From NCBI GenBank assembly GCA_000004695.1, contig CM000153.2, positions 2,368,001-2,432,000 of the forward strand: 64,000 bases of DNA, given 5' to 3'. This DNA comes from Dictyostelium discoideum (Eukaryota). The translations under genes and the position numbers were made by a program. Below the pieces are notes generated by a model. It ran no database searches and had not been told where the DNA came from. It saw only the letters and a program-made list of their open reading frames with translations. Shown piece after piece: positions 1-58,300 of the stretch. The stretch's first letter is position 1. The number at the start of each line of letters is the position of its first letter.

Positions 1-1309
1 CCTTTGAAATATATTTTATTATTCGATATTTTAAAATTATTTTATTATAATTAATTTTTATTTTAATTTTTATAATTATTTTTATTTTAGCTCATAAATT
101 TTATATCATCACCATATACATATTAAACAATTAAATAAAATTTTTATTTATTTTATTTTATTTTTTAAAAAAAATAATTATTCACCTACCATTTGTAGTA
201 AAGATATTATTTTTACTAAATATAAAAGATAATACTGCATTATTATAAAGATAATAATTAAATGATTCTGTTTTATAAATAATTTCGAAATATTATCATA
301 ATATTGTTTTTATATTCACCCACAAATACATATAGAGTTATAAAGTTATATTCACCCCCACACACTTATCAAAAAAAAGCATTAGATTAGAAAAAAAAAC
401 AATAAAAAAAGATCTTTTACAAATAAAAAAAAATCAAGAACATCATAATATACTAGGGTTAATATTTAATATGGCAGCTAAATATAAAATAAAAAAATCA
501 ATTAATTACCACATTAAGCCCAGAGGACATATAAAATAATTTAGATTGGTTTAAACAACACACATACACACACACAATTCACACATTATTTTTTTTTTTA
601 TGTTTTTTTTTTCTCTTTAGTTTAAAATATTAATCTGTCCCACCCTGTCCTTTACTTTAGTTTTCAAATTAATTTCCTTTTCATTAAAATAAAAACAATA
701 TTGTTATTTTAATTAATTATTTAATATTGTTTTTTTAAAATATTTTTATTTTAACCCCAAGAAATAATTTGATATAAAAAGGTTAACTTTAAAAAAAAAA
801 AAAAAAACAAAAAATCATATTTGAATATTTATCAATCAAATCAAATAGTCAAAAAATTATATATAATAAAAATTTACTTAAACTACAAAAATATTATAAT
901 TTTAGCTGTTGATTGTTCATTTACAATTTTTCAGTAAAAAAAAAAAAGAAAAAAAAAAAAATTTTATTTAAACACTTTTTTATATATATTTATTTTGATA
1001 TTTATTTGTTTTTTTATTTTTATTTTTTAAAAAATCATCATTTTTTTTTTAAATAAAATAAATCTGTTTTTAAATTATAATATAATATTTTAAATTTATA
1101 AATTTATAAAAAAATAATAATTTATTTATTTTTTTCACTATATTGTACTTTAAATAAATAAATAAAATAAAATAAAATAAATTAAAATAAAATAAAATAA
1201 AATAAAATAAAATAAAATAAAATAAAATAAAATAAAATCCAACCATTTTTTTGTATTGTACTTTAATATATAAATATTATTATTAAAAAAAAAAAAAAAA
1301 AAAAAAAAA

Positions 1310-34391: not shown

Positions 34392-34400
<9 letters not shown>

Positions 34401-37380
34401 TTGTTTTGCAACTTCAACATCACAAACCAAGAAATGACTACCAGCTGGTAAAAGTTGAGATGATTTTGAAGAAGTTGTTTTTAAAGCGAATAATACATTG
34501 GCAACTAAACAAGATGGTAAATTTTTATCATATAATTTTTTGAGGGCAGACATTGAATCATTTGAGACACAAACGATACCTTCTTCTAATTGATGACCAT
34601 AATATCTTTCACCTTTTAAGACGAATAAAGCTGTGCAACCTGCTTCAATCTTTGTAAATGTAATTGGAGAACCATTTATGAAATCCATTAATTTAATGTT
34701 CTCTCTTGAGCTGGTGGTTAAATCCTCTTCTAAAGCAGAAGCACGACGACCAGCTTCCAACAATTCCTCTTCGGTACCCATCCAACCAGATATTTTCTCT
34801 TGGAAACTTTCTTCCAAAAGGTGGATTAATTCTTTATTCTTTTCAGTTTGATTCTTACTATGATTTCTTTCAATTTGTTGAACTAATGCTTGGATTCTAT
34901 TTACAGAGATGTCACTTGGAGTTATACAAGTTAAATCTAAATCACCACTATTAAGGGTTTTAAGTGCTTTACCACCAGATCTATATTTTTCAAATCTATC
35001 CAAAATTAAAGCTGATGGTGTTTTCTTTTGACCAATACCTTTTTCAATTGATATGTTATCTGACGATGAAGTGGTAGTTGTAGTGGTTGTTGTAGTAGTG
35101 TCGTGAATATTAATCTTTGAGAAATCTTTAGTTGTTATTTCCATATTATTATTATTATTATTATTATTATTTGAGCCAGCAACACTTGCAATTGATTTTT
35201 CAATAGCCATATCAATTTCAAGATCGAAATCACTCTTAACTTTTGTAACAATGGCAGTGGTAGTATTGGTGGTTGAAGATGATACTAATGATTTCATTAA
35301 TTCTTCTTCTTCTTGTTTATTTAGCTCTACTTTGGTGGTTTCATCGGAATCTTCTAGATCAGATTCACTATCACTATCATCTAAATCTACTTTATTATAT
35401 TGAGCCAATAATTCAATATAAGTGAAACCATGATTATTTACAACACTAATGTCACAATTACTTTCGATTAAGTAGGTGACAATATCGGTATTATTGGTAA
35501 CGATTGCTTTGAAGATTGGTGTTTCACCATCACCATCGACGGCATTAATATTTGAACCAGCTTCAACCAATTTAACAAAGATATTGTAACGACCTAAAGC
35601 GGCAGCCCAATGTAATGGAGTCATACCAGTGTGATCCTTGATATCCAAAAGTCCATCACCCATGAATAAAAAGTGTTCAATGAAAATGGAAACGATACGA
35701 CAATTGTTATCTTGAACAGCATAATGGAAAGCGGTTAAACCACGGTTATCTTTACATTCAACCAATACGTCATATTGTTGACAAATGAATTTGACCAATC
35801 TATAATGACCACGTTCGGTGGCAATATGTAAACCGGTGGCACCAACATTATCGGCATTTAAAAGATCAAGATCACTACCGGATGCTTCGATCACTTGAGT
35901 GACCAATTCAATTGAACCTGAATAACAAGCCATATGGAAAACTGAGTGACTACTTCTATTCTTTATGGTTAAATCAGCACCCATTTCAATCAATTTCTCG
36001 ACCATATCAGTACGACCTTCCTTGGCAGCAATCATAATTAAAGTATTACCTTGTAAGTCTCTAATGGAATTGACGAAACCATCCTTTTCATCACCACTTA
36101 ATAAATCTTCTAATTCTTCAACTTCGCCATGGATTACACAATTCATATAGTTGAAATAACTTGGTGAAGAGTTCATATTGTTATTATTATTACCACTATT
36201 ACCACTGCTACCAGTGATGAAATAAGTTTGACTGTTACCACCAGCACCACCAACAGCACCATTAATGTACATACTATTTGAATAATCTTCACTTGATGGT
36301 GATGAAGGATTTCTATCGCCACCAAAATCAATTTGTTGACCACGTTGACGTTTTGGATTACCATCTTCTGGTAATTCATTATAGGTGAATGGATGTGGTT
36401 TACCGATTTTAGATTTATTTTTGACAGACTTTTCCTTATCTTTTTTGATGGTGTTTTTAGTGTAACGGGTGGTGACATTGTATGAACCAGGTGTTGAACG
36501 ATTTGGTGGAACAAAAGCAAAAGAGAAAGAGGTTTGATTTGGCATACGAAGTTGTTCTTGCTTTACAGAGTATGGTTGATGATCGGGAGATGGTTCCAAT
36601 GGATCGAGATCTACATAGAGAATTTCAGTACGACCTTTCTTAAAGTAGTAACCATAACAAGTTACCTCTGGCTCTTGACCACAATAACAAGAGTTTGGAA
36701 CTAAACGAGCTATATCTGGTGCTGGTAAGAGATCGGTATGGTAAAAGAGATTGATTGGTTGCGAAACAACTTCATTGAAACGTTCAAAAGTTCTCTTGTT
36801 GATTAAAGAGAATTTCAAACGGAATGAACTACATGGGTCATGTTTCTTACGATCGACGTGCATATCGGTGAATTTAAATTCAAATGTACCATCGATACAA
36901 GTAACGGCTGGTTGTGAAATAATGATTGAATCATCTGGCTCTGGATTTGCAACTACCATTAAATCATTGGCATCCCCTTTATAGTTGGCAACTTTGACAA
37001 CTGGTGCTGGAACGAGTACATGAGTTTTGACAGTATAAATTGGGAATGGTTGATTGTAACTATCTACAATTTCAACTTTTGGTCCATAGCTATTAATATT
37101 TACAGGTATATTATTAAAAATTTGTGGATTATTATTAATATTATTATTATTATTATTATTATTATTTCTTTGATTATTAGTTTGAATTTGTTGATTATTA
37201 TTTTGTTGTGGTCTTTGTGGTGATTGAATTAAACCATTATTAAATTGCATTGGTGATGATGCATAATCATTATTTGGTGTTGATGGTTCTGAATATTGGT
37301 TTTGAATTGCTGGCAGTATTAAATTATTACCAGTACTATTCATATTTATATTATTACTATTATTCATATTTATATTGTTA

Positions 37381-37444
<64 letters not shown>

Positions 37445-37689
37445 TATTATTATTACTATTATTATTACTATTATTATTCATATTATTGTTGTTGTTATTA
37501 TTATTATTATTATTATTATTGTTGTTGTTGTTGTTCATATATTGTTGTGTCATTTGTTGCTGCATAAATTGATTTTGGTATACTGATTGAGACGAGTTTG
37601 ATAAATCATTGAAATTATTGTTGTTATTATTATTATTATTACTATTAGTGTTGTTGTTGTTGTTATTACTATTATTATTGTTGATGTTG

Positions 37690-37733
<44 letters not shown>

Positions 37734-38247
37734 GTGATTGTTATTGTTGTTATTGTTATTATTATTATTTCCAAATGATGGTGATCTTATTGGAATTGAG
37801 CCCATTGAATTTATATTGTTGTTGTTGTTGTTATTATTATTATTGTGGTGGTGGTTGTTGTTGTTGTTGTTGTTGTTGCTATTATTATTATTATTATTAT
37901 TATTACTATTGTGGTGATGATGATTATTGTTGTGATTGTGGTTGTTGTTGTTATTATTATTATTGTTGTTGTTGTTGTTGTTGTTATTATTGTTGTTATT
38001 ATTATTACCACCATTATTACCATTATCTTGTTGTGGTGAATGTGGAACTGGCGAATAAACAATAGTATTTGGTTGTGACAATGGTGAGTGTGGTACCATC
38101 GATGTATGTTCATTATTGTTGGAGGTTGGTGCATTTTTAAAGACCAAATTGCCCAAAGCTATTTGTTGGTGAATGTATGACAAAAAGAATGGATCATTTA
38201 AATCTACAGATTGAGGATTGGTATTATTGTTGTTATTATTATTATTG

Positions 38248-38279
<32 letters not shown>

Positions 38280-38515
38280 GTTATTATTATTATTATAGTA
38301 ACCCATATTATTGTTATTACTGTAACTATTGTTGTTGTTATTATTATTATTATTACTATTATTATTATTATTATAGCAATTATTAGTATTATTATTATTA
38401 TTATTATTACTGTTATTGTCAAAAAAGATCTCGTCTGATCCATTAGACACATAACCATTCACAGAATCCTTGGTCATCATATTTCCATCGTCATTATTAT
38501 TGTTGTTGTTATTAA

Positions 38516-38547
<32 letters not shown>

Positions 38548-38579
38548 GAATATTGGTTGTTATTGTATGATTGATCCAT
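34392..38579 (-). CDS. Very large (1395 aa) poly-N/poly-H-rich protein with a central beta-rich domain and a C-terminal block of ankyrin repeats; single long exon
   Basis: ANK repeats GNTLIMIAAKEGRTDMVEKLIEMGADL..., TGLHIATERGHYRLVKFIC, TAFHYAVQDNNCRIVSIFI, TPLHWAAALGRYNIFVKLVEAGSNINAVDGDGETPIFKAIV. Upstream conserved region PFPIYTVKTHVLVPAPVVKVANYKGD...CYGYYFKKGRTEILYVDLDP of unknown family. Extreme homopolymeric N, H and T runs. Confidence 0.7.
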
Positions 38580-41413: not shown

Positions 41414-41763
41414 TAAAAAAATATATTGTTATATTATATTTAAATGAAATTTCGTTTTTCTCAGTTTGATTTTTTAAACAGTTAAAATTTAAAAATGATC
41501 AATTGGAATGCAAAAATCCTTTTTTTTTTTTTTTTTTTTTTTAAAAAAAATAATATTTACTGTATAACATTATTATTATTTATAAAAACTGTTCTTTGAT
41601 ATATGTTGTTTCTAATAACATTTGATTTAAATTTGAATTTTTTTTTTTATGATATATCTTAAAATTTTATTTGTTGGCATTTTGGTTTCCTACATTATAT
41701 AAATAAATTAATTTGAAAAATCTTGTTGGTCAAAGTGGAAAATTAACACCTTTTTTTAAAATT

Positions 41764-43508
41764 TTATAATTTTAGATTATTAAAATCTTTAAGATTTTTA
41801 CGTAATAGTTTACCAGTTGCAGATTTAGGAATTGCAGGTATGAAAAAGATACCACCTCTGAAATGTTTATAATTTGCAATTTTTGGGTGAGCCCAATCCA
41901 AGAGTTCTTTTTCAGTAAGAGATTCATTTTGTTTAATAACAACGAAACCTCTTGGTACTTCACCCATATCACCTTTTGAAAGACCTACTACACAGGCATC
42001 TGCAACTTTTGGATGAGATAATAGTAATGCTTCTAATTCAGCAGGTGGTACTTGGAAACCTTTACATTTGATCAATTCCTTTGATCTATCGATGATAAAG
42101 AAATAACCATCTTCATCAACATAACCAATATCACCAGTTTTTAAGAATCCATCTTTATCTATGACTTCATTGGTTGCCTTTTCATTGTTATAATAACCCA
42201 ACATAACATTTGGACCTTTAATACAGATTTCACCCTTTTCACCCATACCTAAATTCTCACCAGTCTCTGAAGAGATGATTTTAGCTAATAGATTGGGTAA
42301 GAGGGTACCAGAGGAACCCGATTTAACTAATCCATTTGGGGTTACAAAACAACATGGACTAAGTTCGGTAGCACCATAACCTTGTTTAATTACAAGTCTG
42401 CCTTTGAATCTTTCTTTAATTAAATCTTCAATCTCTGAACCTAATGGAGCAGCACCACAAAATAGTGTACGTAAACTTGAGAGATCAAATTTATCGACGA
42501 TTGGTGATTTTGCAAACATGATAGCAATCGGTGGAACAATGAATGACATTGCAACCTTATACTTTTTAATTAATTCCAAGAATCTAACTGGTTCGAATTT
42601 TGGTAAGGTAACAATTCGATAACCTTGTTTCACCATCAACATTATGTGTAACATTAAACCAAAGGAATGAAAGAATGGTAAGACACCAATAACGCTATCA
42701 TTCTTTTTATAGGTTGATGTTTCAATGGTTTGAGTTTGATATGTATTTGAGACTAGATTATAGTGACTTAAACAAACACCTTTAAATAATCCAGTTGTGC
42801 CACTTGAAAATGGAATAATAGCTGTATCTTTCGTTAGATCAATTCTAACGATTGGGTAATCTTTACCATTATTATTAGTTAATTGATTAAACGACATTAC
42901 AATTCCATCACTAGATAAAGTTAATTGATCAATTTCTTTTAAAGTTTGACCTGCAATATCGACTAAAATCACTTTTTCAACACTTGGAAAAACTCTTTTT
43001 AAATCATTTTTAATCTTTTCATATACTGCTAATGTTACTGCTAAATATCTTGGTGAAACTGTTGCTAATGTATGTGATAACTCTTCAATTGTATAGTCTG
43101 GATTAACTAATGATGTAATGCCTCCCATCAATAATGTACCATGAAATATTGGTACATATTCTGGTAAATTTGGTAGAATTACTCCAAGTACATCACCTTT
43201 TTTAATATTTAATTTATTTAAACCACATGCAACCTAATTAAAAAATAATAAAAATAAAAATAAAAAAAAAAATTTTTAAAACTTGTTTGGAAATAGAAAA
43301 AAAAAAAAAAAAATTTATTTACCTTTTCAATTGTATCAGCGACAAAATGTGAAGAATATTCTTTAAAAGTTAAACCATCAACTAATAAAACTTGATCAGG
43401 TTTATATCTTATATGTTTTAAAATTAAATGTGGTATTGGTTTCTCTGGTATTATAATATTTGGGTATTTTGATGTGAAATAAGTTTGTCCATTAATTATT
43501 CTAATCAT
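41764..43508 (-). CDS. 4-coumarate-CoA ligase-like acyl-activating enzyme (ANL/AMP-binding superfamily), tandem copy A; 2 exons approx 43323..43508 and 41764..43233
   Basis: Exon 1 MIRIINGQTYFTSKYPNIIIPEKPIPHLILKHIRYKPDQVLLVDGLTFKEYSSHFVADTIEK ends at an AAG|GTAAAT donor. An AATTAG acceptor joins VACGLNKLNIKKGDVLGVILPNLPEYVPIFHGTLLMGGITS. Box I FSSGTTGLFKGV, box II GEICIKGPNVMLGYYNN, QGYGATELSP. Total length about 552 aa, as for D. discoideum 4cl1-3. Confidence 0.85.
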
Positions 43509-43613
43509 CCTTAAATTTTTAATTTTTTTTTTTAAAATGGTATTGTGTTTATGCTATGGGTTATTATTTAAAAAATTTTCTGTTGGTATTAATATATTAC
43601 ATTTAAATAAAGG

Positions 43614-43652
<39 letters not shown>

Positions 43653-44191
43653 AACAGTTTTATTAATTGTTTGTTTTACTATTATTAATAGTAAATTTTT
43701 TTTTTTTTTTTTATATTTTTTATAGTATAAAAATGTGGTGTTTAGAAAAAATATCTCAAACTGGAGATTTTTCAAAAATAAAAATACTAACAAATATTTT
43801 TCTCTTGCCAAACATTTTTTATTTGTTTATTATTTTTTATTATTACTATAATTAATATTATGATTATTAAAAACTTATTAATATTAAACAATTTAATTCA
43901 TTACATATCAAAAATTAAAAAATTGCAATCGATAATAAAAAAAAAATCTTGGTCCATAATATTTTCTTTTTTTTTTTTGAAAATGTTTTTTTATTTTATT
44001 TTCTATTTTTTATTATATTTTTTTTTCCTCCCTACTGTTTTTTTATTTGTAATAAGTAAAAAAAAAAAAACACGGTAAAACCGAATCTCGAGAATATCTT
44101 TTAAAATTTTCTTAATGACAAGACCTAATTTTTTTTTTTTTATTTTTAAAACTTGTTTGGAAATAGAAAAAAAAAAAAAAAAATTTATTTA

Positions 44192-44378
44192 CCTTTTCAA
44201 TTGTATCAGCGACAAAATGAGAAGAATATTCTTTAAAAGTTAAACCATCAACTAATAAAACTTGATCAGGTTTAGATCTAATATGTTTTAAAATTAATTG
44301 AGGTATTAGTTTCTCTGGTATTATAATATTTGGGTATTTTGATGCGAAATAAGTTTGTCCATTAATTATTCTAATCAT
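44192..44378 (-). pseudogene. Orphan duplicate of 4CL-like exon 1 plus the intron start, with no downstream exon 2 (duplication relic)
   Basis: MIRIINGQTYFASKYPNIIIPEKLIPQLILKHIRSKPDQVLLVDGLTFKEYSSHFVADTIEK is followed by GTAAAT. The homologous intron runs to the acceptor region ...ACCTAATT (about 44124), then similarity to exon 2 stops. Confidence 0.7.
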
Positions 44379-44842
44379 CCTAGAAATTTTTTTTTTTTTT
44401 TTTTAATAAACAATGGCGAAACTTAAATTAGGAGAATTTTGGAAAACAAAGAAATAATAAAAAAAAAGTTAAAAATAATAATTATTTATTTTTTAAAAAA
44501 TGGTATGGTGTTTAAAAAAAAAAGTTAAAAATAATAATTATTTATTTTTTGCCTCGTAAAAAAAAAAAATAATAAAGTATATTAATTTGTTTGTTTTAAT
44601 TAATTTTATGTTACGCCACATTAATTAATTTTATTTAGTATTTGGCTTTTATCGATAAAAGGTGTTTTTTTTTGTATACCTTTCTTCATTTATCCTAATC
44701 TTTTTAAATAATAAATTGAAAAAAAATCAATAAAATGTGAATAATAAAAATTTAGGTGCCGAAAAAAAGGTGTTTTGGATTTGTATGGGGTGGAAGAAAA
44801 TAAAAAAATATAAGTAAAAAAAAAAAAAGAGGAGTCAAACCC

Positions 44843-44864
44843 CACAAACGCCCCATAAAATTAC
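44843..44864 (+). promoter_or_regulatory. Tandem pair of DUSE-like motifs (ACCCCACAAA + GCCCCATAAAA) matching the Dictyostelium upstream sequence element consensus [AT]CCCA[CT]AA of ncRNA genes
   Basis: Read directly in aaccccacaaacgccccataaaa. Embedded in a locally GC-richer patch between the orphan 4CL exon and 4CL copy B. Confidence 0.3.
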
Positions 44865-45036
44865 TTTTCACAAATAAAAAATTAAAAAAAAATAAAAAAA
44901 TACAAAAAAAAAGTGGTGTTGTCATAAATAGTAAATCACGCAAGATATTTTAGACTAGTAAAAAACAGTGCTATTTGAATTCAAACCGACATTAAAAAAT
45001 AATTTTATCTTTTTTTTTTTTTTTTAATTTAAAAAA

Positions 45037-45098
45037 ACAGATGGTCTGTTTTTTTTTTTTTTTTTTTTTTTTTCTCCCCATCTGTTTTTTTAAATTAA
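45037..45098. terminator. Perfect 9-bp inverted repeat AACAGATGG ... CCATCTGTT enclosing a 35-nt T/C loop (hairpin), about 200 bp downstream of the 4CL copy B stop codon
   Basis: Read directly. Function (3'-end processing signal, replication-slippage relic or protein-binding palindrome) is unknown. Confidence 0.25.
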
Positions 45099-45290
45099 AA
45101 GACCAGGAGAAAAAAAAATAAAAAAACAAAAAATATCAAAGAATTTTATTCAGTATTATTTAGAAAAAAGAAAATATTAATAATTTATACTAATAAAATA
45201 TATTTTTTTATATAGAATCAATCCAAAACATTAGTTTAGCAACTTGTTGTAAATTTTAAATTTTTATTTTTTATTATAATTTTATTTATT

Positions 45291-47024
45291 TTATAATTTC
45301 GGAGGATTAATATCTTTAAGATTTTTACGTAATAGTTTACCAGTTGCAGATTTAGGAATTGCAGGTATGAAAAAGATACCACCTCTGAAATGTTTATAAT
45401 TTGCAATTTTTGGATGAGCCCAATCCAAGAGTTCTTTTTCGGTTAGAGATTCATTTTGTTTAATAACAACGAAACCTCTTGGTACTTCACCCATATCACC
45501 TTTTGAAAGACCTACTACACAGGCATCTGCAACTTTTGGATGAGATAATAGTAATGCTTCTAATTCAGCAGGTGGTACTTGGAAACCTTTACATTTGATC
45601 AATTCCTTTGATCTATCGACGATAAAGTAATAACCATCTTCATCAACATAACCAATATCACCAGTTTTAAAGAATCCATCTTTATCTATGACTTCATTGG
45701 TTGCCTTTTCATTGTTATAATAACCCAACATAACATTTGGACCTTTAATACAGATTTCACCCTTTTCACCCATACCTAAATTCTCACCAGTCTCTGGAGA
45801 GATGATTTTAACCAATTGATTGGGTAAGAGGATACCAGCGGAACCAGATTTAATTAGTCCACTTGGAATTACAAAACAGGCTGGACTAAGTTCGGTAGCA
45901 CCATAACCTTGTTTAATTATGAGTTTTCCTTTGAATCTTTCTTTAATTAAATCTTCAACCTCTCTGCTTAATGGAGCAGCGCCACTAAATAGTGTACGTA
46001 AACTTGAGAGATCAAATTTATCGACGATTGGTGATTTTGCAAACATGATAGCAATCGGTGGAACAATGAATGAAATTGCAACCTTGTACTTTTGAATTAA
46101 ATCCAAGAATCTAACGAATTCAAATTTTGGTAGGATAACAACACAATGACCTTGTTTTACCATCAAAATTAGGTATGTCATTAAGCCATAGATATGAAAA
46201 AATGGTAGTTGACCCATAACTGTATCATTCTTTTTATAGTTTGTCGTTTCAACGGTTTGAGTTTGATGTGTATTGGAAACGAGATTATGATGACTTAAAC
46301 AAACACCTTTAAATAATCCAGTTGTACCACTTGAAAATGGAATAATAGCTGTATCTTTCTTTAGGTCAATTCTAACGATTGGGTAATCTTTACCATTATT
46401 ATTAATTAGTTGATTGAATGACATTACAATTCCATCACTAGATAAAGTTAATTGACCAATTTCCTTTAAAGTTTGACCTGCAATATCTACTAAAATCACT
46501 TTTTCAACACTTGGAAAAACTCTTTTTAAATCATTTTTAATCTTTTCATAAACTGCTAATGTTACTGCTAAATATCTTGGTGAAACTGTTGCTAATGTAT
46601 GTGATAGCTCTTCAATTGTATAGTCTGGATTAACTAATGATGTAATGCCTCCCATCAATAATGTACCATGAAATATTGGTACATATTCTGGTAAATTTGG
46701 TAGAATTACTCCAAGTACATCACCTTTTTTAATATTTAATTTATTTAAACCACATGCAACCTAATTGAAAAATAATAAAAATAAAAATAAAAAATTGATA
46801 TTAGTTTTGGAAAAAAAAAAAAAAAGAAATTTATTTACCTTTTCAATTGTATCAGCGACAAAATGTGAAGAATATTCTTTAAAAGTTAAACCATCAACTA
46901 ATAAAACTTGATCAGGTTTCGATCTAATATGTTTTAAAATTAAATGTGGTATTGGTTTCTCTGGTATTATAATATTTGGGTATTTTGATGTGAAATAAAT
47001 TTGTCCTTTAATCATTCTAATCAT
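45291..47024 (-). CDS. 4-coumarate-CoA ligase-like acyl-activating enzyme, tandem copy B; 2 exons approx 46849..47024 and 45291..46760
   Basis: Same architecture and motifs as copy A. About 88-90% amino-acid identity to copies A and C by eye. Confidence 0.85.
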
Positions 47025-47363
47025 CCTGAAATTGTTATTTTTTTTTTTAAAAATATCAAAAAAAAAAAAGAATAAAATAAAACTTAAACCAGGAGAATTT
47101 TGAAAAAAAAAAATATTTAAATTTAAAATGTTAAAAAATGGTATGGATGTGTTTAAGCTATGGGCTAATATTTAAATAATATACAATAGGTAATATTTTA
47201 CAAACAAATTAAAAAATTAAAAAAATATCAAAAAAAAAAAAAATTAAATAAAAAAAAAAAAAAAAAATCAAGTTTAAAAATTTGTGTGTTTTAATTATTA
47301 TTATATTAGACACATTAATTAGTTTTATTATTATTATTTTTTCTTTTTTTTCTACTTTAAAAA

Positions 47364-47399
<36 letters not shown>

Positions 47400-48041
47400 A
47401 TTTTTTAAAATGTGTGGTTTAGGAATAAGATCCCTCAAATAAGATTATGCCAATTGAAAATTATAAAAAATTAATTTTCCAATATAAAGAATAAACAAAG
47501 AAAAAATGTTTTGCACTGGGTTTATAAAATTAAACAAAAATTTAATATAAATTAAAACAATCTCTCATTTTTCAAAAATGATTCAATCAATTAAAAAAAT
47601 GAAAGATTGCAAAATTTTATTAATTTAAAATTAAGTTTATTAATATCTTCGGTGAAAAAAAGAAAATTCACAGAAGAAAAAAAAAAAAAAAATCATTTTC
47701 CACATAAAACTATTCAAATTAATTTATTTATTCAAACAAATAAAAATTTATGAAATATTTGAAATATCTAATAAAGAAAAAAAATCGAAATAATATACAT
47801 ATAGCATATTGAATAGTTTTAAAAAAAAAACAAAATTCAAACCAAATATTATTAAAAACTAAAGAATGTTTTTCAGTAAATATTATTTAGAAAAAAAGAA
47901 AAAAATTTAATAATCTATGCCAATATTATATATATTTTTTTTTATAGAATCACATTAGTTTAATAACTTGTTGTAAGTTGTGTTTAAATTTTTATTTTTC
48001 GACTTAAGTTTAATTTTTTATTTTTTATTTTTTATTTTATT

Positions 48042-49558
48042 TTATAATTTTGGAGGATTAAAATCTTTAAGATTTTTACGTAATAGTTTACCGGTTGCAG
48101 ATTTAGGAATTGCAGGTATGAAAAAGATACCACCTCTGAAATGTTTATAATTTGCAATTTTTGGATGGGCCCAATCTAAGAGTTCTTTTTCGGTTAGAGA
48201 TTCATTTTGTTTAATAACAACGAAACCTCTTGGTACTTCACCCATATCACCTTTTGAAAGACCTACTACACAGGCATCTGCAACTTTTGGATGAGATAAT
48301 AGTAATGCCTCCAATTCGGCAGGAGGTACTTGGAAACCTTTACATTTGATCAATTCCTTTGATCTATCGACGATAAAGTAATAACCATCTTCATCGACGT
48401 AACCAATATCACCAGTTTTTAAGAATCCATCTTTATCTATGACTTCATTGGTTGCCTTTTCATTGTTATAATAACCCAACATAACATTTGGACCTTTAAT
48501 ACAGATTTCACCCTTTTCACCCATACCTAAATTCTCACCAGTCTCTGGAGAGATGATTTTAGCCAATTGATTGGGTAAGAGGATACCAGCGGAACCAGAT
48601 TTAACTAATCCACTTGGAATTACAAAACAGGCTGGACTAAGTTCGGTAGCACCATAACCTTGTTTAATTACAAGTCTGCCTTTGAATCTTTCTTTAATTA
48701 AATCTTCAACCTCTGAACTCAATGGAGCAGCACCACTAAATAGTGTACGTAAACTTGAGAGATCAAATTTATCGACGATTGGTGATTTTGCAAACATGAT
48801 AGCAACTGGTGGAACAATGAATGAAATTGCAACCTTATACTTTTGAATTAACTCCAAGAATCTAACTGGTTCAAATTTTGGTAAGACAACAACACGATGA
48901 CCTTGTTTCACCATCAACATTAAGAATAACATTAAACCATAGATATGAAAGAAAGGTAATATACCCATAACTGTATCATTCTTTTTATAGGTTGATGTTT
49001 CAATGGTTTGAGTTTGATATGTATTGGAAACGATATTATGATGACTTAAACAAACACCTTTAAATAATCCAGTTGTACCACTTGAAAATGGAATAATAGC
49101 TGTATCTTTCTTTGGGTCAATTCTAACGATTGGGTAATCTTTACCATTATTATTAATTAGTTGATTGAATGACATTACAATTCCATCACTAGATAAAGTT
49201 AATTGATCAATTTCTTTTAAAGTTTGACCTGCAATATCGACTAAAATCACTTTTTCAACACTTGGAAAAACTCTTTTTAAATCATTTTTAATCTTTTCAT
49301 ATACTGCTAATGTTACTGCTAAATATCTTGGTGAAACTGTTGCTAATGTATGTGATAACTCTTCAATTGTATAGTCTGGATTAACTAATGATGTAATGCC
49401 TCCCATCAATAATGTACCATGAAATATTGGTACATATTCTGGTAAATTTGGTAGAATTACTCCAAGTACATCACCTTTTTTAATATTTAATTTATTTAAA
49501 CCACATGCGACCTAATTGAAAAATAAATAAAAATAAATAAAAAAACTATTAATATTTG

Positions 49559-49591
<33 letters not shown>

Positions 49592-49784
49592 TATTTACCT
49601 TTTCAATTGTATCAGCGACAAAATGTGAAGAATATTCTTTAAAAGTTAAACCATCAACTAATAAAACTTGATCAGGTTTAGATCTAATATGTTTTAAAAT
49701 TAATTGTGGTACTGGTTTCTCTGGTATTATAATATTTGGGTATTTTGATGTGAAATAAGTTTGTCCTTTAACTTTTATAATCAT
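48042..49784 (-). CDS. 4-coumarate-CoA ligase-like acyl-activating enzyme, tandem copy C; 2 exons approx 49600..49784 and 48042..49511
   Basis: Same architecture and motifs as copies A and B. Confidence 0.85.
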
Positions 49785-50208
49785 CCTGAAATTATTATTT
49801 AAAGTTGAAAAAAAAAAAAAAAAAAAAAAAGAAAATATAATAAATTAAAACAAAAATGAAAAGAATATTGGGAGTAAAGAAAAAATAATAAAATTTAAAA
49901 AAAAAAGTTAAAAATAATTGGTTATTTTTTTTAAAAAATGGTGTGAATGTGTTTATGCTATGGATTAATATCTAATAATTTACAAAGGTATTTTACAAAT
50001 AAATATCTAAAAAAAAAAAAAACTAATTTTAAAAAAAAAAAAAAAAAAATTAATTTAAAAAAAAAAAAAAAAAATTAATTAAAAAAAAAAAAAAAAAAAA
50101 AAATCGAACGTTTGATTTTTTTAACTGAAATTTCCAATCGTCATAATATCCTAAATTAATTTAAATGATGGTTTTTTGAAATTACAAACATTGCGCAAAT
50201 ATTAAAAC

Positions 50209-50239
<31 letters not shown>

Positions 50240-50842
50240 CTTTTATTTTTTAATATTAAAATTTTTTTTTTTGTTTTGTGTTTTGTTTAATTTTGTTTTG
50301 TTTTTTTTTTTTTATTTTATTTTTATTTTTTATCTTTTTTATTTTTACCTGAAAACCTTATTTGATTTTGAAAATGTTAAAAAAACAAAACCTGACGACA
50401 TATGATGAATTTTTATTTTTATTTTTATACCACCATATTATTTTTTTTAATTTTTTTAATTTTTTTTATTTGACAATTCAAGTAATTTTTTATAAGCTTT
50501 CCCAAATAGGATGGAAATAATTTTTTTGTTTTAAGATTTTTTTTGTTTTATTAATTTAAAAAAAAAAATTATTAAAAAAAAAAAAGAATGAATATTTGTT
50601 AACTCAATCGAATAAATAAATATTTTAAACCATACAATCCAAATTAAAAAATATATATATATTTGGAAAATAACCTTAATATTTAATTTCTGGAAAATAC
50701 AAATGGAGAGGGAGATATGAATTTTTTTTTTTTTTATATCGATAAAGTACTTTATTTTATTATTTTTATTTTATTATTTTGTTATTTTATTATATTATTT
50801 TTAATTATTATTTATTTATTATTTTTTTATTTTTTTATTTTT

Positions 50843-53462
50843 TTACATATTTTTATATTTTGCTTCTAAAGTTAAAATTGCATTTGGAGAAATTCTTTTT
50901 GTTCTTTGTAAGAAATCAATAATGATTTTACCTTCTTCTAGAGAAAAGAAAGGTTGACTCATTTTCTCTAAAAGATAATTTAATAATTCATCCTCTGCGG
51001 AAAGGGCTTGATAAAATTGACGAATACGGTCAAAGAAAATCTCACGTTTTACAATGATATTTGAAAGATTCTGTTGAAGTGTGAACACATTTTTACAAAG
51101 TTTAGCAACACCATTATCATTGATTGAATTGACATGTACCAATTTCGAGATTAATAATTTACCAATTAATTTTGCAATACCACTAAATAAGAAATTACAT
51201 TTATCACTTGTTAAATAAATTGACATCATTTCTTCACTTGCTGATAAATCTTTATTCAATTCAACAATGAATGAATCAGGATCAGTTCTTTCCTCTTCAC
51301 ACATATATTGAGCTCTCTTAAATCCTTCTAAAAAGTAAAAACAATGAATACGATATTCAATACGTAATGCTAATAAACAACGTTTTGATAAATCTTTAAA
51401 TCTTTGTGCAATATCCTTAATTGGTTCTTCCATTGTTTTCAATGCTTCAATTGATTCTGCTGACATTTGATTAAATGTACCTATAAAATTATTACTACCA
51501 GTAGTTGTACTATTATTTTCTTTATTACTTGCTGTACTATTACCACCACTATTAATACCACTATTTAATTTCGATGGTGTTTTAATAGAATCAACTTGTT
51601 GTTGCTGTTGTTGTTGTTGCTGTTGTTGTTGTGTATATTTTTCTTTTTGATCTTCTTGAACAATTAATAATTGAACAATTTTATCAGCTAACCAATTTAA
51701 ACTATGACTCATATTGGCCAACATTGTTAATTTTTCAATATTTAAAATTAATTGATTCTTTAAAACTGGTTTTTCAGGATGATTGAATAAATCAGACTCT
51801 AATTTAAATTCATATTCTTCCTCTCTTGAATCTTGAAATTTAGCAACATCTTGTTTCTTTGAACTTACAGCTAATGATGCTAATAGATATTTATAGAGAT
51901 CTGTATTCAATAGTTGATTAGTTAATGTTGGATCTATTTCTTGACTGAATTTACTTAAACATTTTTCATAATATCTTAAGAGTGATACTTGAATGATTGC
52001 ACCAAACTCTACGACATAATGACTCATAGCCACAATATCAGAGAAAAGTTCAATAACAAATTGAAATATTTGTAAGGTACTATTTAAAATTGGTTTAGTT
52101 TCTTTTAATCTAAATACTAATTTATATCTTTCCAATGGTTTGAATGCTTCTGTACTTTCAATTGAATGAGCGAATCTATCCTTATAATCATTCTTTATAT
52201 GTTGTAAAAAGTTTCTATGAACAAAATCATCTATATATAATCTTAATAAACCTTTTTTACTATTTTGATTATGATAACTATTTGTAGTAGTAGTAGTAAT
52301 GGTGGTGGTGGTTTTAGTAGTTGTTGGTGTACCAGTTCTATCTCTAAGGGTTTTATCTAAATGGTCAGTAAACTTGACAATCATTGGATAAATTGGTGTA
52401 ACATTATATTGTGAAGCTTTAAATATACTAATTACAGCAGGACCACCACTATTTGAATCAATAGCATCAGCACCTGAAGTACCATTTGGTGAAGTTGGTG
52501 AAGTTGTTACCATTGGACTAATTGAACCATTCCAATTATCAGTAACAATTGAATTTGTAAAACTAAATAGTCTTTGAGACTTACCACTATTTGATTCAGT
52601 ACCATCTGGATTTAATCTACTCTTTGTACTTAATAATAAACTTGATGTATCTTGTAAATGAACTCTTAACATTTCTCTAATCTCTTTTTGAATGATTTCC
52701 CAAACTAATGATGCATCATAAACATCTGCAATTTCAACTTTTGATTTTTGAAGTTTAGTTGGTTTTGGTGTACCTTCGAAATCATTATCGGAATCACCAC
52801 CACCACCCTCAGTTTCTTCTTTAAAATCAAATTTATTTGCACGAATTTTTAATTCACTTTTTCTAATTGCATCATTAAAAATTTTACTTAATTGAAGATG
52901 ATTCTTGAAAACCATATTAACTTTATTGAATATCATTTTCAATAAATCTACCAATGGTATATTGTGAGTTTGATTAGCTAATAAATCATTTCTATTGAAA
53001 GTTTCAGTCAAGAAATTGAATGCTGCTGAATATTCATCGATATTACTAAATGTTGCACTACCAATATGTGAATTCTTACTTAATACACTTGGTGATAATC
53101 CATTAGCCCCAATATTTGATGATGTTGAGGATGTTGGTGATGATGACGATGCTGTAGAACCATTACCATTTATACCACCACTACCATTCATACTATTATT
53201 ACCACCACCATTGCTACCATTACTACCATTACTACTATTTGATGATTCGCCAGGCATCTTTGGTATAACTCTACCTTCACTATGATATACATTGGTAATA
53301 AGTGTTATACTATTTGTAATTGCAGTCTTTAATTCAATTGAAATTCTACCTAAAATTAAACCAACCGCTGGTGATAAATATTCTAAAACATTCAATGCTT
53401 CAACTAATAATGTCATAAATAATTTTCCATCTTGTTCTGGATCAATATTTAAATCTTCTTTA

Positions 53463-55375: not shown

Positions 55376-58300
55376 TTAATCATATTTATTTATAATACTA
55401 AATAAATTTTCAAATGAATCTTTATTTGGATCAAAATTTTCAAAATAATCCAAAAGCTCATTATATTTTTTAATTTTAGATTGATTTGGTGATATTGGTT
55501 CAAAATTTTGACAATTAATAGTTTTGTATTGTTTTTGATGATCCATAATTTCATAAGCTCTATTTACTACATTTTCATTTACACCAGCAATCTTTGCACA
55601 TAATATACCAAACGATGAACTTGAAATACCTTCTTTTAATTTATAAAATGGTATAAATTCATTTGGTTTATTATTTGTATTTGTTATTTTATTTGTAGTA
55701 TTGAAAATATTATTATTATTGGTTTTAGTATTGGTAGTTGTGTTGGTTGATTGTAAATCTAAAAATTTATTATTATTATTTTGATTATTATTAGTTTCAA
55801 TCACAAATTCCATTGTATTAAATAAAACTTTATTAAATATACTATCGGTTGAATTTGAAATTAGTTCAAAGAATTCATAAAAGTGAGTACAAATAAAAGT
55901 TTTTGGAGTTGATGGCGATTTAGTTAAAAGGAATACCAATAGACCATATAGTAGAGAGATACCATCCAATGGATTTGTACCTTTTCCATACTCGTCAATG
56001 ATTAAAAGTGAACGACTAGTTGCAAAACGAGTCATTTGAGCAATTTGTTTACAATCGATCATAAATGAGGATTCAGAGATGGCATTACTCTCTCTTGATG
56101 ATATTCTAGTATAGATATGATCAAATAATGATATAGTAGCACTTTTAGCAGGTACATAACTTCCAATTTGACCAAGGAAAACAATTAGAGCAACTTGTTT
56201 AATATAAATACTTTTACCAGATTGATTTGGACCAGAAACGATAACTACTGGCTTTGTTGGGTCGTTTTGAGTGTCATTTGGTATGAAATTGGTGACACAG
56301 TATTCTTGAATTAAATGACGACCACTTTGAATTTCAATTTCTTGTTGTTCCGTTGAAATGATTGGTTTAACAAGATCATATGCTTGAACACAACTTGCCA
56401 ATGATAATATACAATCCAATTGAGTACAATAATTACATAAATCAATGATTGAACCACTATTAGACATTATTTCGTCAACTACCTCTTTTTCAATCCTTGA
56501 TTGAATATCTAATATATCATTATGAATATCACCAAAGAAATCATCCAATTCTTTAGTTTTTTGATTTTGAAAATAAAGGTAACTACTTGTTTTAAATATA
56601 AAACTTAAAGATGGTATATTAATTTGATTACCAATTGCAATACTCTCTTCAATTGGTATACAAATTAAACAACCCAATTGTGGATAATAAACTAAATGAA
56701 ATGATGTAATCCAAGTTAGATTTGTAAATTTAACTCTTTCTAATTCACCATGTTCAGTTAGAATTTCATCCATTGATAAATAAACATTTCTCAATTGATC
56801 CAATTCTTCATCAACCCCTTCTCTAATTGATATTCTTTGGTCATCTTGATCTGCAAAAAAAAATATACTTTCAAATTTTTGATATATATTAACCAATGAC
56901 TGTGGATATAAATTATTTAATTTCTTTAAAAATGGTAGTTCAGAATTCTTTGGAACAATTAATAATTTAATCTTTAAAAAATAATGAAAAGTTTTATAGA
57001 TTGAAATGAAATCTTTAGATGGATTTTGTGATGACCTATATATATAAATAGTAAAAAAAAAAAAAAATTAATTAAAAAAAAAATAATAAACTTTATTTAA
57101 ATTTATTATATAATACATACGAAATTCTACTTAAAATTATTTTTAAATCTTTAATATTTTTTAAATTATCTAATAATTCAAATTTTAATGATGAGTTTTC
57201 TTGTGAAGAAAAAAATTGAATTAAATTTTGTCTTTCTTCAATAACAAATCTATTTCTTGATGGTCTCATAAACCAAGTTCTAAAATTAAAAAAAAAAAAA
57301 AAAAGTACTGTTTAATAGTTATATTATAATATAATATATCATTATATTCTTCAATATTGAAAATTATTGATTAAAAAAATATATTACTTTAATAACTTTT
57401 TACCCATTGTTGTTTTTGTTTTATCGAACAAACCAAATAAAGATAATCCTTCTTTTGAATTACCGAATGAATAACAACTTGGATGGCTTTTTTTAATAAA
57501 AATATTAGTGTTAAAATAAATTTTTTTTAAAAAAAAAAAAAAAAAAGAAATGATTACTTTTGGTTTGAAAATATTTGTAATGAAAATAAAGTATTATTAT
57601 CTAATAATAAATATTGATTTAAAGTAATTGGACAAATTTCATTAATAATTAAATTATCCAAAGAATCGAAATCATCCAATAAAATATATTTTGATAAATA
57701 TGATAATAATCCACCAACTGCTCTTATCTAATATTTTTTAATAAAAAAAAAAAGAAAAAAACGAAAAAAAAGGGTTAATATTGCTTTGTGTTTTTTTAAT
57801 TTTTTAGAATAAATTTTATTTACCATTTCAATATTATCAAAATTGAAAACATTTTGTAAAAATGTATATTTAATTGTTGTATTGTTGGTATTGCACATTG
57901 ATAATTTAAGATTTAACAATCTATTCTTTGATGATTCAAATGTAAAATCACTAAATCTTGAATAATGGTATTGAGTATTTTTTGATGTTTGTTTTTCATT
58001 ATTTTCATTAGAGTCATCTAAATTTCTTAAAATATTATCAATAAATTTTTGTGGCATTCTTGAAGGTATTATTATTACTTTTGGATTTATTAGTTGTTTA
58101 ACTTTTTTAAAAAATAAAAAATTATAGAGTTAATAAAATTTTTTTTTTTTTTTAATTTAATATTAGATTTAATTAAATAAATAACAATATACCTACTTGA
58201 ATTTAAACAAGAAAAATTCTCATCTTCCCAGCATTGGCATAAATAGATATTAGATTCTAATCTATCATAATAAGCTACACCAATTTTTAAATCTTGATAA

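Follow-up and report, generated by a model that had tools for sequence, protein, structure and literature searches.

Three neighbouring genes that are almost identical over most of their length and differ chiefly in one central stretch may be young, or they may be old genes that have been kept alike. This is the question raised by 4cl1, 4cl2 and 4cl3 of the social amoeba Dictyostelium discoideum AX4, which lie head to tail on the minus strand between 41.7 and 50.1 kb of a 64-kb window of chromosome 4 (GC ~22%, with long homopolymer tracts), and which are predicted to encode acyl-CoA ligases of the ANL superfamily. An initial annotation of the window described a recent tandem triplication with mosaic divergence confined to substrate-pocket segments, and attributed it to gene conversion plus selection. 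The last part of that description is strongly supported by the analysis reported here, the recency is not; at a probability of roughly 0.75, we read the genes as members of an old tandem array that has been homogenised by conversion, with selection keeping type-specific residues in the substrate-binding region.

All three genes display the same architecture, with a first exon of 186 nt, a GT-AG intron (87 nt in 4cl1, 78 nt in 4cl2 and 89 nt in 4cl3) and a second exon of 1470 nt, and their 551-amino-acid products are exact matches to D. discoideum AX4 database entries, each bearing the homology-derived name 'Probable 4-coumarate--CoA ligase'. The introns can be aligned with a mean column identity of 79%. 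The initial annotation was thus right about the head-to-tail arrangement and the shared exon-intron structure and intron sequence, and every residue string it quoted for its copies A, B and C is present as given. Within the trio, 120 of the 1653 nt of coding sequence (CDS) vary (53 unique to 4cl3, 41 to 4cl2 and 23 to 4cl1, with three-state differences at 3), and 83 of these fall in codons 176–384, a density of 13.2% versus 3–4% towards either end (chi-square p = 2e-12); the synonymous differences, too, are unevenly spread (p = 0.008). This divergent core spans the substrate-binding region, with Box I (SSGTTGLFKG) at codons 205–214 and Box II (GEICIKG) at codons 395–401. Codons 3–35 and 546–549, outside the core, vary among the AX4 copies as well, and to that extent the divergence is not confined to pocket segments.

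Taken alone, the AX4 trio does not justify a mosaic. A runs test on the order of 4cl3-specific and 4cl2-specific changes gave p = 0.26, and a GENECONV-style permutation of the longest matching run gave p = 0.10–0.37. The patterns within the trio are not phylogenetic conflict, because three sequences give only singleton changes on separate branches, and conflict appears only after other genomes are added. Up to this point a genuinely recent triplication, with central differences arising fast through positive or relaxed selection and no conversion needed, would account for what is seen: the number of synonymous substitutions per synonymous site (dS) between paralogues is only ~0.10 overall, the gene ends are nearly identical and the trio yields no significant conversion fragment.

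The syntenic locus, comprising MutS5, a Sec8-like gene and the ligase, was retrieved from eight other genomes by protein search and contig look-ups. One ligase copy is found in each of D. purpureum, D. firmibasis, D. dimigraforme and D. citrinum, two in D. cf. discoideum ACTFIZ (Z), three, one of them truncated, plus a 3' fragment in D. cf. discoideum ACTFIY (Y), three in D. discoideum ACTFIR (R) and five in D. discoideum ACTFIW (W). Across these genomes the tandem array appears to be specific to the D. discoideum complex and variable in copy number (2–5), so that 'triplication' is an understatement, the more so as AX4 itself holds a remnant of a fourth copy that had been missed. The dS of the neighbouring single-copy Sec8-like gene provides a yardstick of age, and is 0.11–0.12 between AX4 and W, R or Y, 0.15 between AX4 and Z, and 0.31 between AX4 and D. 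citrinum. In the gene ends, paralogue dS (0.018–0.12) is at or under that of the isolate split (0.11–0.15); in the centre (0.13–0.24) it falls in the range from the isolate split to the split with D. citrinum.

The copies of the different isolates fall into types, here numbered after the AX4 genes. 4cl1, at the first array position, is the conserved, ancestral-type copy, since in its central region the protein is identical to the first-position copies of other isolates and nearly so to those of the single-copy species; 4cl3, at the last position, is assigned to a derived type 3. Noncoding upstream flanks of 350 bp also group by type and array position (AX4 4cl1 with W1, for example, at 90% over 356 bp), paralogous promoters inside AX4 being at most ~79% identical over partial lengths, and array order follows type across isolates too. 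Types, diagnostic residues and promoters are therefore older than the isolates that share them, and the duplication predates a split at neighbour-gene dS of 0.11–0.15, which a recent triplication does not allow; the apparent youth of the copies has been produced by conversion.

When neighbour-joining trees are built from the 5' third or the 3' third of the gene, paralogues group by genome, with bootstrap values of 86% and 92% for the AX4 trio, and the tree of the central third groups copies by type across genomes (type 2, 85%; type 3, 89%). The substitutions are thus both non-uniform and, between regional trees across genomes, in phylogenetic conflict, as had been proposed. When the central third was reduced to third codon positions the type grouping was gone, the opposite of expectation, and a quartet analysis splitting synonymous from nonsynonymous sites was therefore carried out. 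Most of the informative sites that unite copies of one genome are synonymous; they are spread over the whole gene, and silent ones (codons 188, 307, 308, 313 and 351) lie interspersed among type-specific codons. Where a site unites copies of one type, the difference is nearly always nonsynonymous. In the quartet of AX4 4cl1 and 4cl3 versus W1 and W5, 14 synonymous and 4 nonsynonymous sites group by genome, as against 3 synonymous and 20 nonsynonymous by type; the contrast across seven quartets gives Fisher p = 4e-7 to 6e-4. Silent sites that follow the genome and replacement sites that follow the type are not what a recent triplication would leave.

Whole-gene and silent-site trees that group by genome, together with a copy number that varies among isolates, could also be put down to independent duplication in each isolate, followed by convergent amino-acid changes. 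This would, however, need 14 identical replacements, conservative ones such as V298I and I222L included, in six copies of four genomes. Type-grouping synonymous sites adjoin diagnostic codons (268, 326, 378, 254, 259, 322 and 364), the third quartet pattern, that of homoplasy, is seen only 0–1 times in the centre, and the tested flanks and the array order follow type, not genome. Independent duplication with convergence is highly improbable, and it was rejected.

Evidence for selection comes from a comparison of McDonald–Kreitman (MK) kind. Between types 1 and 3, 14 nonsynonymous and 0 synonymous differences are fixed (polymorphic, 151 and 146; p = 1e-4), and between types 1 and 2, 14 and 2 (polymorphic, 73 and 130; p = 7e-5). 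Conversion is blind to whether a difference is a replacement or silent, and the retention of replacement differences alone therefore argues for selection. Conversion itself was traced by a GENECONV-style permutation over 391 polymorphic sites among 15 copies from the D. discoideum complex, which gave significant tracts between paralogues in AX4 and in W (p = 2e-4 to 4e-3; Table 1), and none in orthologue control pairs put through the same test (p > 0.4). The conversion scan that is not significant on the trio thus becomes so once population-level polymorphic sites are used. The hallmarks of concerted evolution are found together at this locus, namely likeness of paralogues within a genome at neutral sites, a duplication older than the split and significant tracts in paralogues only. 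With cross-isolate sharing, the contrast between silent and replacement sites and these tracts all opposed to it, the recent triplication was rejected and is very unlikely.

A further possibility is that 4cl2 and 4cl3 are redundant and drifting towards pseudogenes, with a relaxed centre and ends that are alike through constraint. In types 2 and 3 the ratio dN/dS among orthologues (0.16–0.28) is indeed some five times that of type 1 (0.04–0.09), which is under strong purifying selection; truncated copies occur in AX4 and Y, two copies of R are frameshifted and copy number is variable. The likeness of the ends extends to synonymous sites, though, with dS under that of the isolate split, and constraint therefore cannot explain it. 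Each of the three genes of AX4 and the five of W retains an intact open reading frame, canonical splice sites and all catalytic motifs, dN/dS is well under 1, and a process blind to coding effect does not account for 14 nonsynonymous and no synonymous fixed differences between types 1 and 3. Drift towards pseudogenes is an unlikely explanation of the array as a whole.

The reading that we prefer, an old array under conversion and selection, suggests the following history. A single ancestral gene for a peroxisomal-type acyl-CoA ligase of the ANL superfamily, downstream of the MutS5 and Sec8-like genes, would have been duplicated in tandem after the D. citrinum split and before the sampled isolates of the D. 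discoideum complex diverged. Unequal crossing-over would then have changed the copy number, leaving 2, 3, 3, 3–4 and 5 copies and truncated remnants, and combinations of flanks are found that fit such exchanges: R3 has a W3-like promoter with a W5-like 3' flank, the AX4 remnant a W3/R3-like promoter and AX4 4cl3 a W4-like promoter. Interlocus conversion would repeatedly have overwritten the coding sequence, so that within each genome silent sites and the two outer thirds of the genes became alike, which is why the copies look only ~0.1 synonymous substitutions apart. Tracts enter the centre too, and ~20 paralogue-specific amino acids, with few exceptions from the interval between the two boxes, survive in every isolate, a survival that argues for selection against conversions that would erase them. 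4cl1 would have kept the ancestral, constrained pocket, and 4cl2 and 4cl3 would carry derived, faster-evolving ones. What the comparisons above establish is the history of duplication, the action of conversion and a surplus of nonsynonymous differences that have been kept.

Conversion also built something new, as 4cl2 is a true conversion-made chimera. Its segment at codons ~215–290 is type-2-specific (type-2-specific codons ~222–277) and sister to type 3, and the segment at codons ~291–380 is 4cl1-like in AX4, W and R and nearly identical to type 3 in the Y copy. For the two sub-segments the combinations (1,1), (2,1), (2,3) and (3,3) are observed. The pattern in which copy B goes with copy C in some places and A with C in others, noted in the initial annotation, is due to a real conversion mosaic, and the mosaic claim is upheld in this form once genomes are added.

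Residues are called diagnostic here when they are common to all copies of one type. Those of type 3 are at positions 3–5, 222, 253, 258, 298, 321, 327, 356, 360, 362, 370 and 377, from 222 on present in six type-3 copies from four genomes, and those of type 2 at 3–5, 25, 222, 236, 246, 257, 258, 260 and 277. The 16 protected sites outside the N-terminal region (222, 236, 246, 253, 257, 258, 260, 277, 298, 321, 327, 356, 360, 362, 370 and 377) all lie between Box I and Box II, an interval named the substrate-binding region in plant 4-coumarate:CoA ligases (4CLs) (PMC12917453). The confinement claimed for the divergence therefore applies to these residues and to the interval rather than to the pocket proper, where only 3 of 14 mapped positions are diagnostic.

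The pocket was mapped by alignment to Pt4CL1 (3A9U) and Nt4CL2 (5BSM), using the 12-residue code of At4CL2 (I252, Y253, N256, M293, K320, G322, A323, G346, G348, P354, V355 and L356; PMC3958857), the Pt4CL1 pocket residues Y236, G306, G331, P337 and V338 (PMC3958857), and the Pp4CL1/Nt4CL2-numbered pocket with Ser240 (PMC5239791). This yields positions 252, 253, 256, 257, 294, 320, 322, 323, 347, 349, 351, 355, 356 and 357. The diagnostic ones are 253 (Tyr to Phe in type 3), 257 (Leu to Thr in type 2) and 356 (Ala to Cys/Ser in type 3), equivalent to Tyr236, Ser240 and Val338 of the plant enzyme, and the diagnostics at 258, 321, 360 and 362 immediately adjoin pocket positions. Seven of the 14 (252, 253, 256, 257, 320, 347 and 356) vary somewhere in derived copies; all 14 are invariant across type 1, D. 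citrinum, D. dimigraforme and D. firmibasis, and D. purpureum differs only at 351. We infer that the retained residues alter acyl-substrate preference, in which case the three enzymes may activate different acids.

Residues 252/253 are IY in 4cl1 and 4cl2 and SF in 4cl3, the change of Tyr to Phe being fixed in all type-3 copies. The same residue pair is the sole pocket difference (IY versus VF in the FHIY motif) between Ps4CL2 and Ps4CL3, two ~90%-similar paralogues of Scots pine, in which the Phe version prefers cinnamate, the more hydrophobic substrate (PMC12917453). The pine pair differs from the Dictyostelium one in lineage and pocket background, and the swap changed kcat more than Km, so it is no simple specificity switch; in Pp4CL1, Y239F lowered activity (PMC5239791).

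Several points weigh against the reading of an old array under conversion and selection, or limit how far it reaches. In the MK-like test, same-type paralogues are counted together with alleles in the 'polymorphic' class. Region-level dN/dS exceeds 1 in no region (maximum ~0.4–0.7), so that what is demonstrated is retention against conversion and not positive selection; partly relaxed constraint, too, would be compatible with the truncated copies, with the frameshifts of R2 and R3 and with the quicker change of types 2 and 3. For all arrays but that of AX4 the sequences are recent draft assemblies, and such drafts can get tandem repeats wrong. The pocket mapping is one of alignment at ~40% identity rather than of three-dimensional distances and draws its residue lists from secondary sources, and the enrichment of diagnostic residues in the pocket, at p = 0.012 protein-wide, falls to p = 0.11 within the Box I–Box II interval. 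For variable positions in general no significant pocket enrichment was found (p = 0.08).

What do these enzymes activate? The products match PF00501 (E = 8e-75, residues 34–410) and PF13193 (E = 8e-18, residues 461–537), both ANL domains are precomputed for all homologues found, and the catalytic motifs SSGTTGLFKG, QGYGATE, KTGDIGY, DRSKELIK and IPKSATGKLLRK are identical in all three proteins. The best solved-structure matches, over the full length, are the plant 4CLs of Populus tomentosa (4CL1; 3A9U/3NI2) and Nicotiana tabacum (4CL2; 5BSM), with E = 3e-116 and 8e-114; they have in common with the Dictyostelium enzymes the two-domain ANL architecture, Box I and Box II, FHIY, GYG.TE and the C-terminal catalytic Lys motif, but identity is only ~40% and the Dictyostelium enzymes are without the polar 4-hydroxyl-binding residues. 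The luciferase-like acyl-CoA synthetase CG6178 of Drosophila (7KYD) is nearly as close (E = 1e-104). The nearest non-dictyostelid homologues, at 42–46% identity, are animal, sponge and Physarum '4CL-like/luciferin monooxygenase' proteins and bacterial acyl-CoA synthetases, and a search of NCBIfam gave only sub-threshold hits, the best being a long-chain-fatty-acid-CoA ligase (353 bits versus a cut-off of 476).

Bona fide 4CLs have Box I SSGTTGLPKG and Box II GEICIRG (PMC3958857), from each of which the Dictyostelium boxes are one substitution away (Pro to Phe in SSGTTGLFKG, Arg to Lys in GEICIKG). In 4cl1 the At4CL2 code is matched at 7 of 12 positions and so is incomplete; in all three genes N256 is replaced by Met, M293 by Ile and K320 by Phe, V355 has become Ala or, in 4cl3, Cys, and a three-residue deletion takes in the L356 position. 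4cl3 carries the further code or pocket changes I252S, Y253F and A356C. Hu et al. 2010 are said to have found that Ser240 and Lys303 of Pt4CL1 contact the 4-hydroxyl of the substrate; the equivalents here are Leu (Thr in 4cl2) and Phe. With five of the 12 code positions different and the 4-hydroxyl-binding residues absent, the enzymes were not filed as bona fide 4-coumarate:CoA ligases (EC 6.2.1.12). The name '4-coumarate' ligase is probably inaccurate in detail, activity on 4-coumarate seems rather unlikely as the main function, and hydrophobic aryl or aliphatic acids would be the better candidates as substrates. The doubtful label matters for reconstructions of phenylpropanoid-like metabolism, or of that of polyketide starter units, in social amoebae, and the 16 protected residues are the obvious mutagenesis targets for finding what these ligases activate.

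Firefly luciferases and plant OPCL1-type 4CL-like enzymes belong among the luciferase-like or 4CL-like peroxisomal acyl-CoA synthetases, and the consensus of the type 1 peroxisomal targeting signal (PTS1) is (S/A/C)-(K/R/H)-(L/M). As in luciferase-like peroxisomal synthetases, the Dictyostelium C-terminus ends in a PTS1-like -KL, although the tripeptide is PKL or LKL and not the canonical SKL: 4cl1, 4cl2 and all the Dictyostelium copies related to them have the non-canonical -PKL, Polysphondylium violaceum has -AKL, and -LKL is confined to AX4 4cl3. The latter ends in -NLKL (codons 548–549, 41773–41778), the other copies in the genomes examined in -PPKL except for R2, in which it is -PSKL. The conserved -PKL may point to peroxisomal targeting and, if it is such a signal, AX4 4cl3 may be targeted differently.

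The genes have already been annotated and the process is a textbook one, so no new kind of system is involved. Concerted evolution with paralogue-specific sites kept by selection has its classic cases in the primate L/M opsins and in RHD/RHCE. The ligase array resembles these in its silent-site homogenisation, its few older distinct replacement sites and its copy-number variation by unequal crossing-over; it differs in concerning a metabolic adenylate-forming enzyme of a social amoeba, and in that conversion also built a new chimeric pocket combination, that of 4cl2. The case corrects the apparent age of a duplication, and illustrates how paralogue similarity misleads dating where conversion is active. 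A search for literature on concerted evolution in Dictyostelium found only work on rDNA and tRNA, and none by gene id, accession or name found a paper on 4cl1, 4cl2 or 4cl3.

A more speculative and, in our view, doubtful extension is that the array is a fast-evolving locus of specialised metabolism, in which conversion both homogenises and reshuffles the two sub-segments, selection keeps the new pocket combinations, and the enzymes activate different hydrophobic aryl acids, such as cinnamate from the phenylalanine ammonia-lyase DdPAL, which in turn feed the large set of polyketide synthases of Dictyostelium. DdPAL of D. discoideum was horizontally acquired and its activity has been confirmed (PMC2657906, PMC5651878), which would make cinnamate available as a candidate substrate. 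Were this so, isolates with different copy content would be expected to differ in their secondary-metabolite profiles. No metabolic partner gene was found in the ligase neighbourhood.

Table 1. Coordinates of the ligase genes, related segments and conversion tracts (window positions refer to the 64-kb stretch; W1, W2 and W5 are copies of isolate ACTFIW)
Feature	CDS position	Window position	Strand	Remarks
4cl1		48042-49784	-	Q54P77/XP_638381.1; copy C of the initial annotation; exon 1 49599-49784, intron 49512-49598, exon 2 48042-49511
4cl2		45291-47024	-	Q54P78; copy B of the initial annotation; exon 1 46839-47024, intron 46761-46838, exon 2 45291-46760
4cl3		41764-43508	-	Q54P79; copy A of the initial annotation; exon 1 43323-43508, intron 43234-43322, exon 2 41764-43233
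Orphan fourth copy		44125-44378	-	exon-1 frame 44193-44378 (62 codons, intact) and truncated intron 44125-44192; no exon 2
4cl1 upstream (promoter) flank		49785-50085	-	homologous to 4cl2 upstream 47025-47280
4cl2 3' flank		45138-45290	-	homologous to 4cl1 3' flank 47861-48041; marks end of duplicated unit
Divergent core of 4cl1	codons 176-384	48546-49172	-	
Divergent core of 4cl2	codons 176-384	45795-46421	-	
Divergent core of 4cl3	codons 176-384	42268-42894	-	
Tract 4cl1-4cl3	nt 192-522	4cl1 49176-49506; 4cl3 42898-43228	-; -	63 consecutive identical polymorphic sites, p = 2e-4
Tract 4cl2-4cl3	nt 114-333			p = 1e-3
Tract 4cl2-4cl3	nt 1335-1500	4cl2 45447-45612; 4cl3 41920-42085	- (4cl2)	35 consecutive matching sites, p = 4e-3
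Tract W1-W2	nt 924-1142			p = 3e-3
Tract W1-W5	nt 381-658			p = 4e-4

The fourth AX4 copy was found as the fourth member of a four-copy repeat family. It sits between 4cl2 and 4cl3, matches the 5' end of 4cl3 at 95.8% identity across 265 bp and breaks off right at the exon-2 boundary. Upstream of it, ~265 bp of promoter-like homology reach to ~44643, 76% identical to the 4cl2 upstream region and closest to that of the third copy in the W and R arrays, which suggests that AX4 once had at least four full ligase copies. The view that whole promoter-plus-gene units had been duplicated is borne out for 4cl1 and 4cl2, for which the unit gives a 2240-bp alignment at 89% identity with ~260–300 bp of upstream and 150–180 bp of downstream sequence. 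It does not extend to 4cl3, which shares little with them outside the coding region, its upstream homology being good for only ~30 bp, with a further ~160 bp at 71% to 4cl1.

His220, in the 'SHHN' string, is derived and found only in AX4 4cl1 (49038–49040) and 4cl2 (46287–46289), with Tyr in the other copies and the outgroups; it was apparently spread between the two genes by conversion, and the SHHN/SHYN contrast is lineage-specific and not type-specific. At position 320 (K320 of the plant code, Lys303 of Pt4CL1), type-3 copies outside AX4 have Ser and AX4 4cl3 has Phe, as in 4cl1 and 4cl2, and this pocket residue may have been reset by a short conversion.

The arrays of the other isolates contain irregularities of their own. 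In ACTFIW, whose five intact tandem copies occupy L001 7180–20909, an inverted 227-bp exon-2 fragment of 84% identity lies between the third and fourth copies (L001 15302–15519). The second copy of ACTFIY is truncated at about codon 380 (L003 10001–11270), and a separate 3' fragment (exon 2 nt 776–1470; L003 14009–14710) follows the third copy, which gives the impression of an older gene interrupted by the insertion or internal duplication of a whole copy, although an assembly error is possible too. R2 and R3 of ACTFIR (L002 10001–11724 and 12766–14509) each have a frameshift early in exon 2, which their annotation bridges with non-standard introns to give products of 543 and 538 amino acids; these are either real pseudogenes or homopolymer errors of assembly.

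Scans of the whole 64-kb window detected neither tRNA genes nor, at the gathering threshold, any match to an Rfam family. On the same strand as the ligases lie the Sec8-like gene (open reading frame 50843–53416), the MutS5-like gene (~55376–56896) and, on the other side (34392–38579), a gene for a protein of ~1400 amino acids without Pfam domains. Just past the end of the match between the 4cl2 and 4cl1 3' flanks, at 45138, there is an inverted repeat (45004–45118) with the core AATTTAAAAAAACAGATGG / CCATCTGTTTTTTTAAATT and a spacer of ~33 nt, which could be a transcription-termination hairpin, or the footprint of a rearrangement or transposon at the unit boundary.

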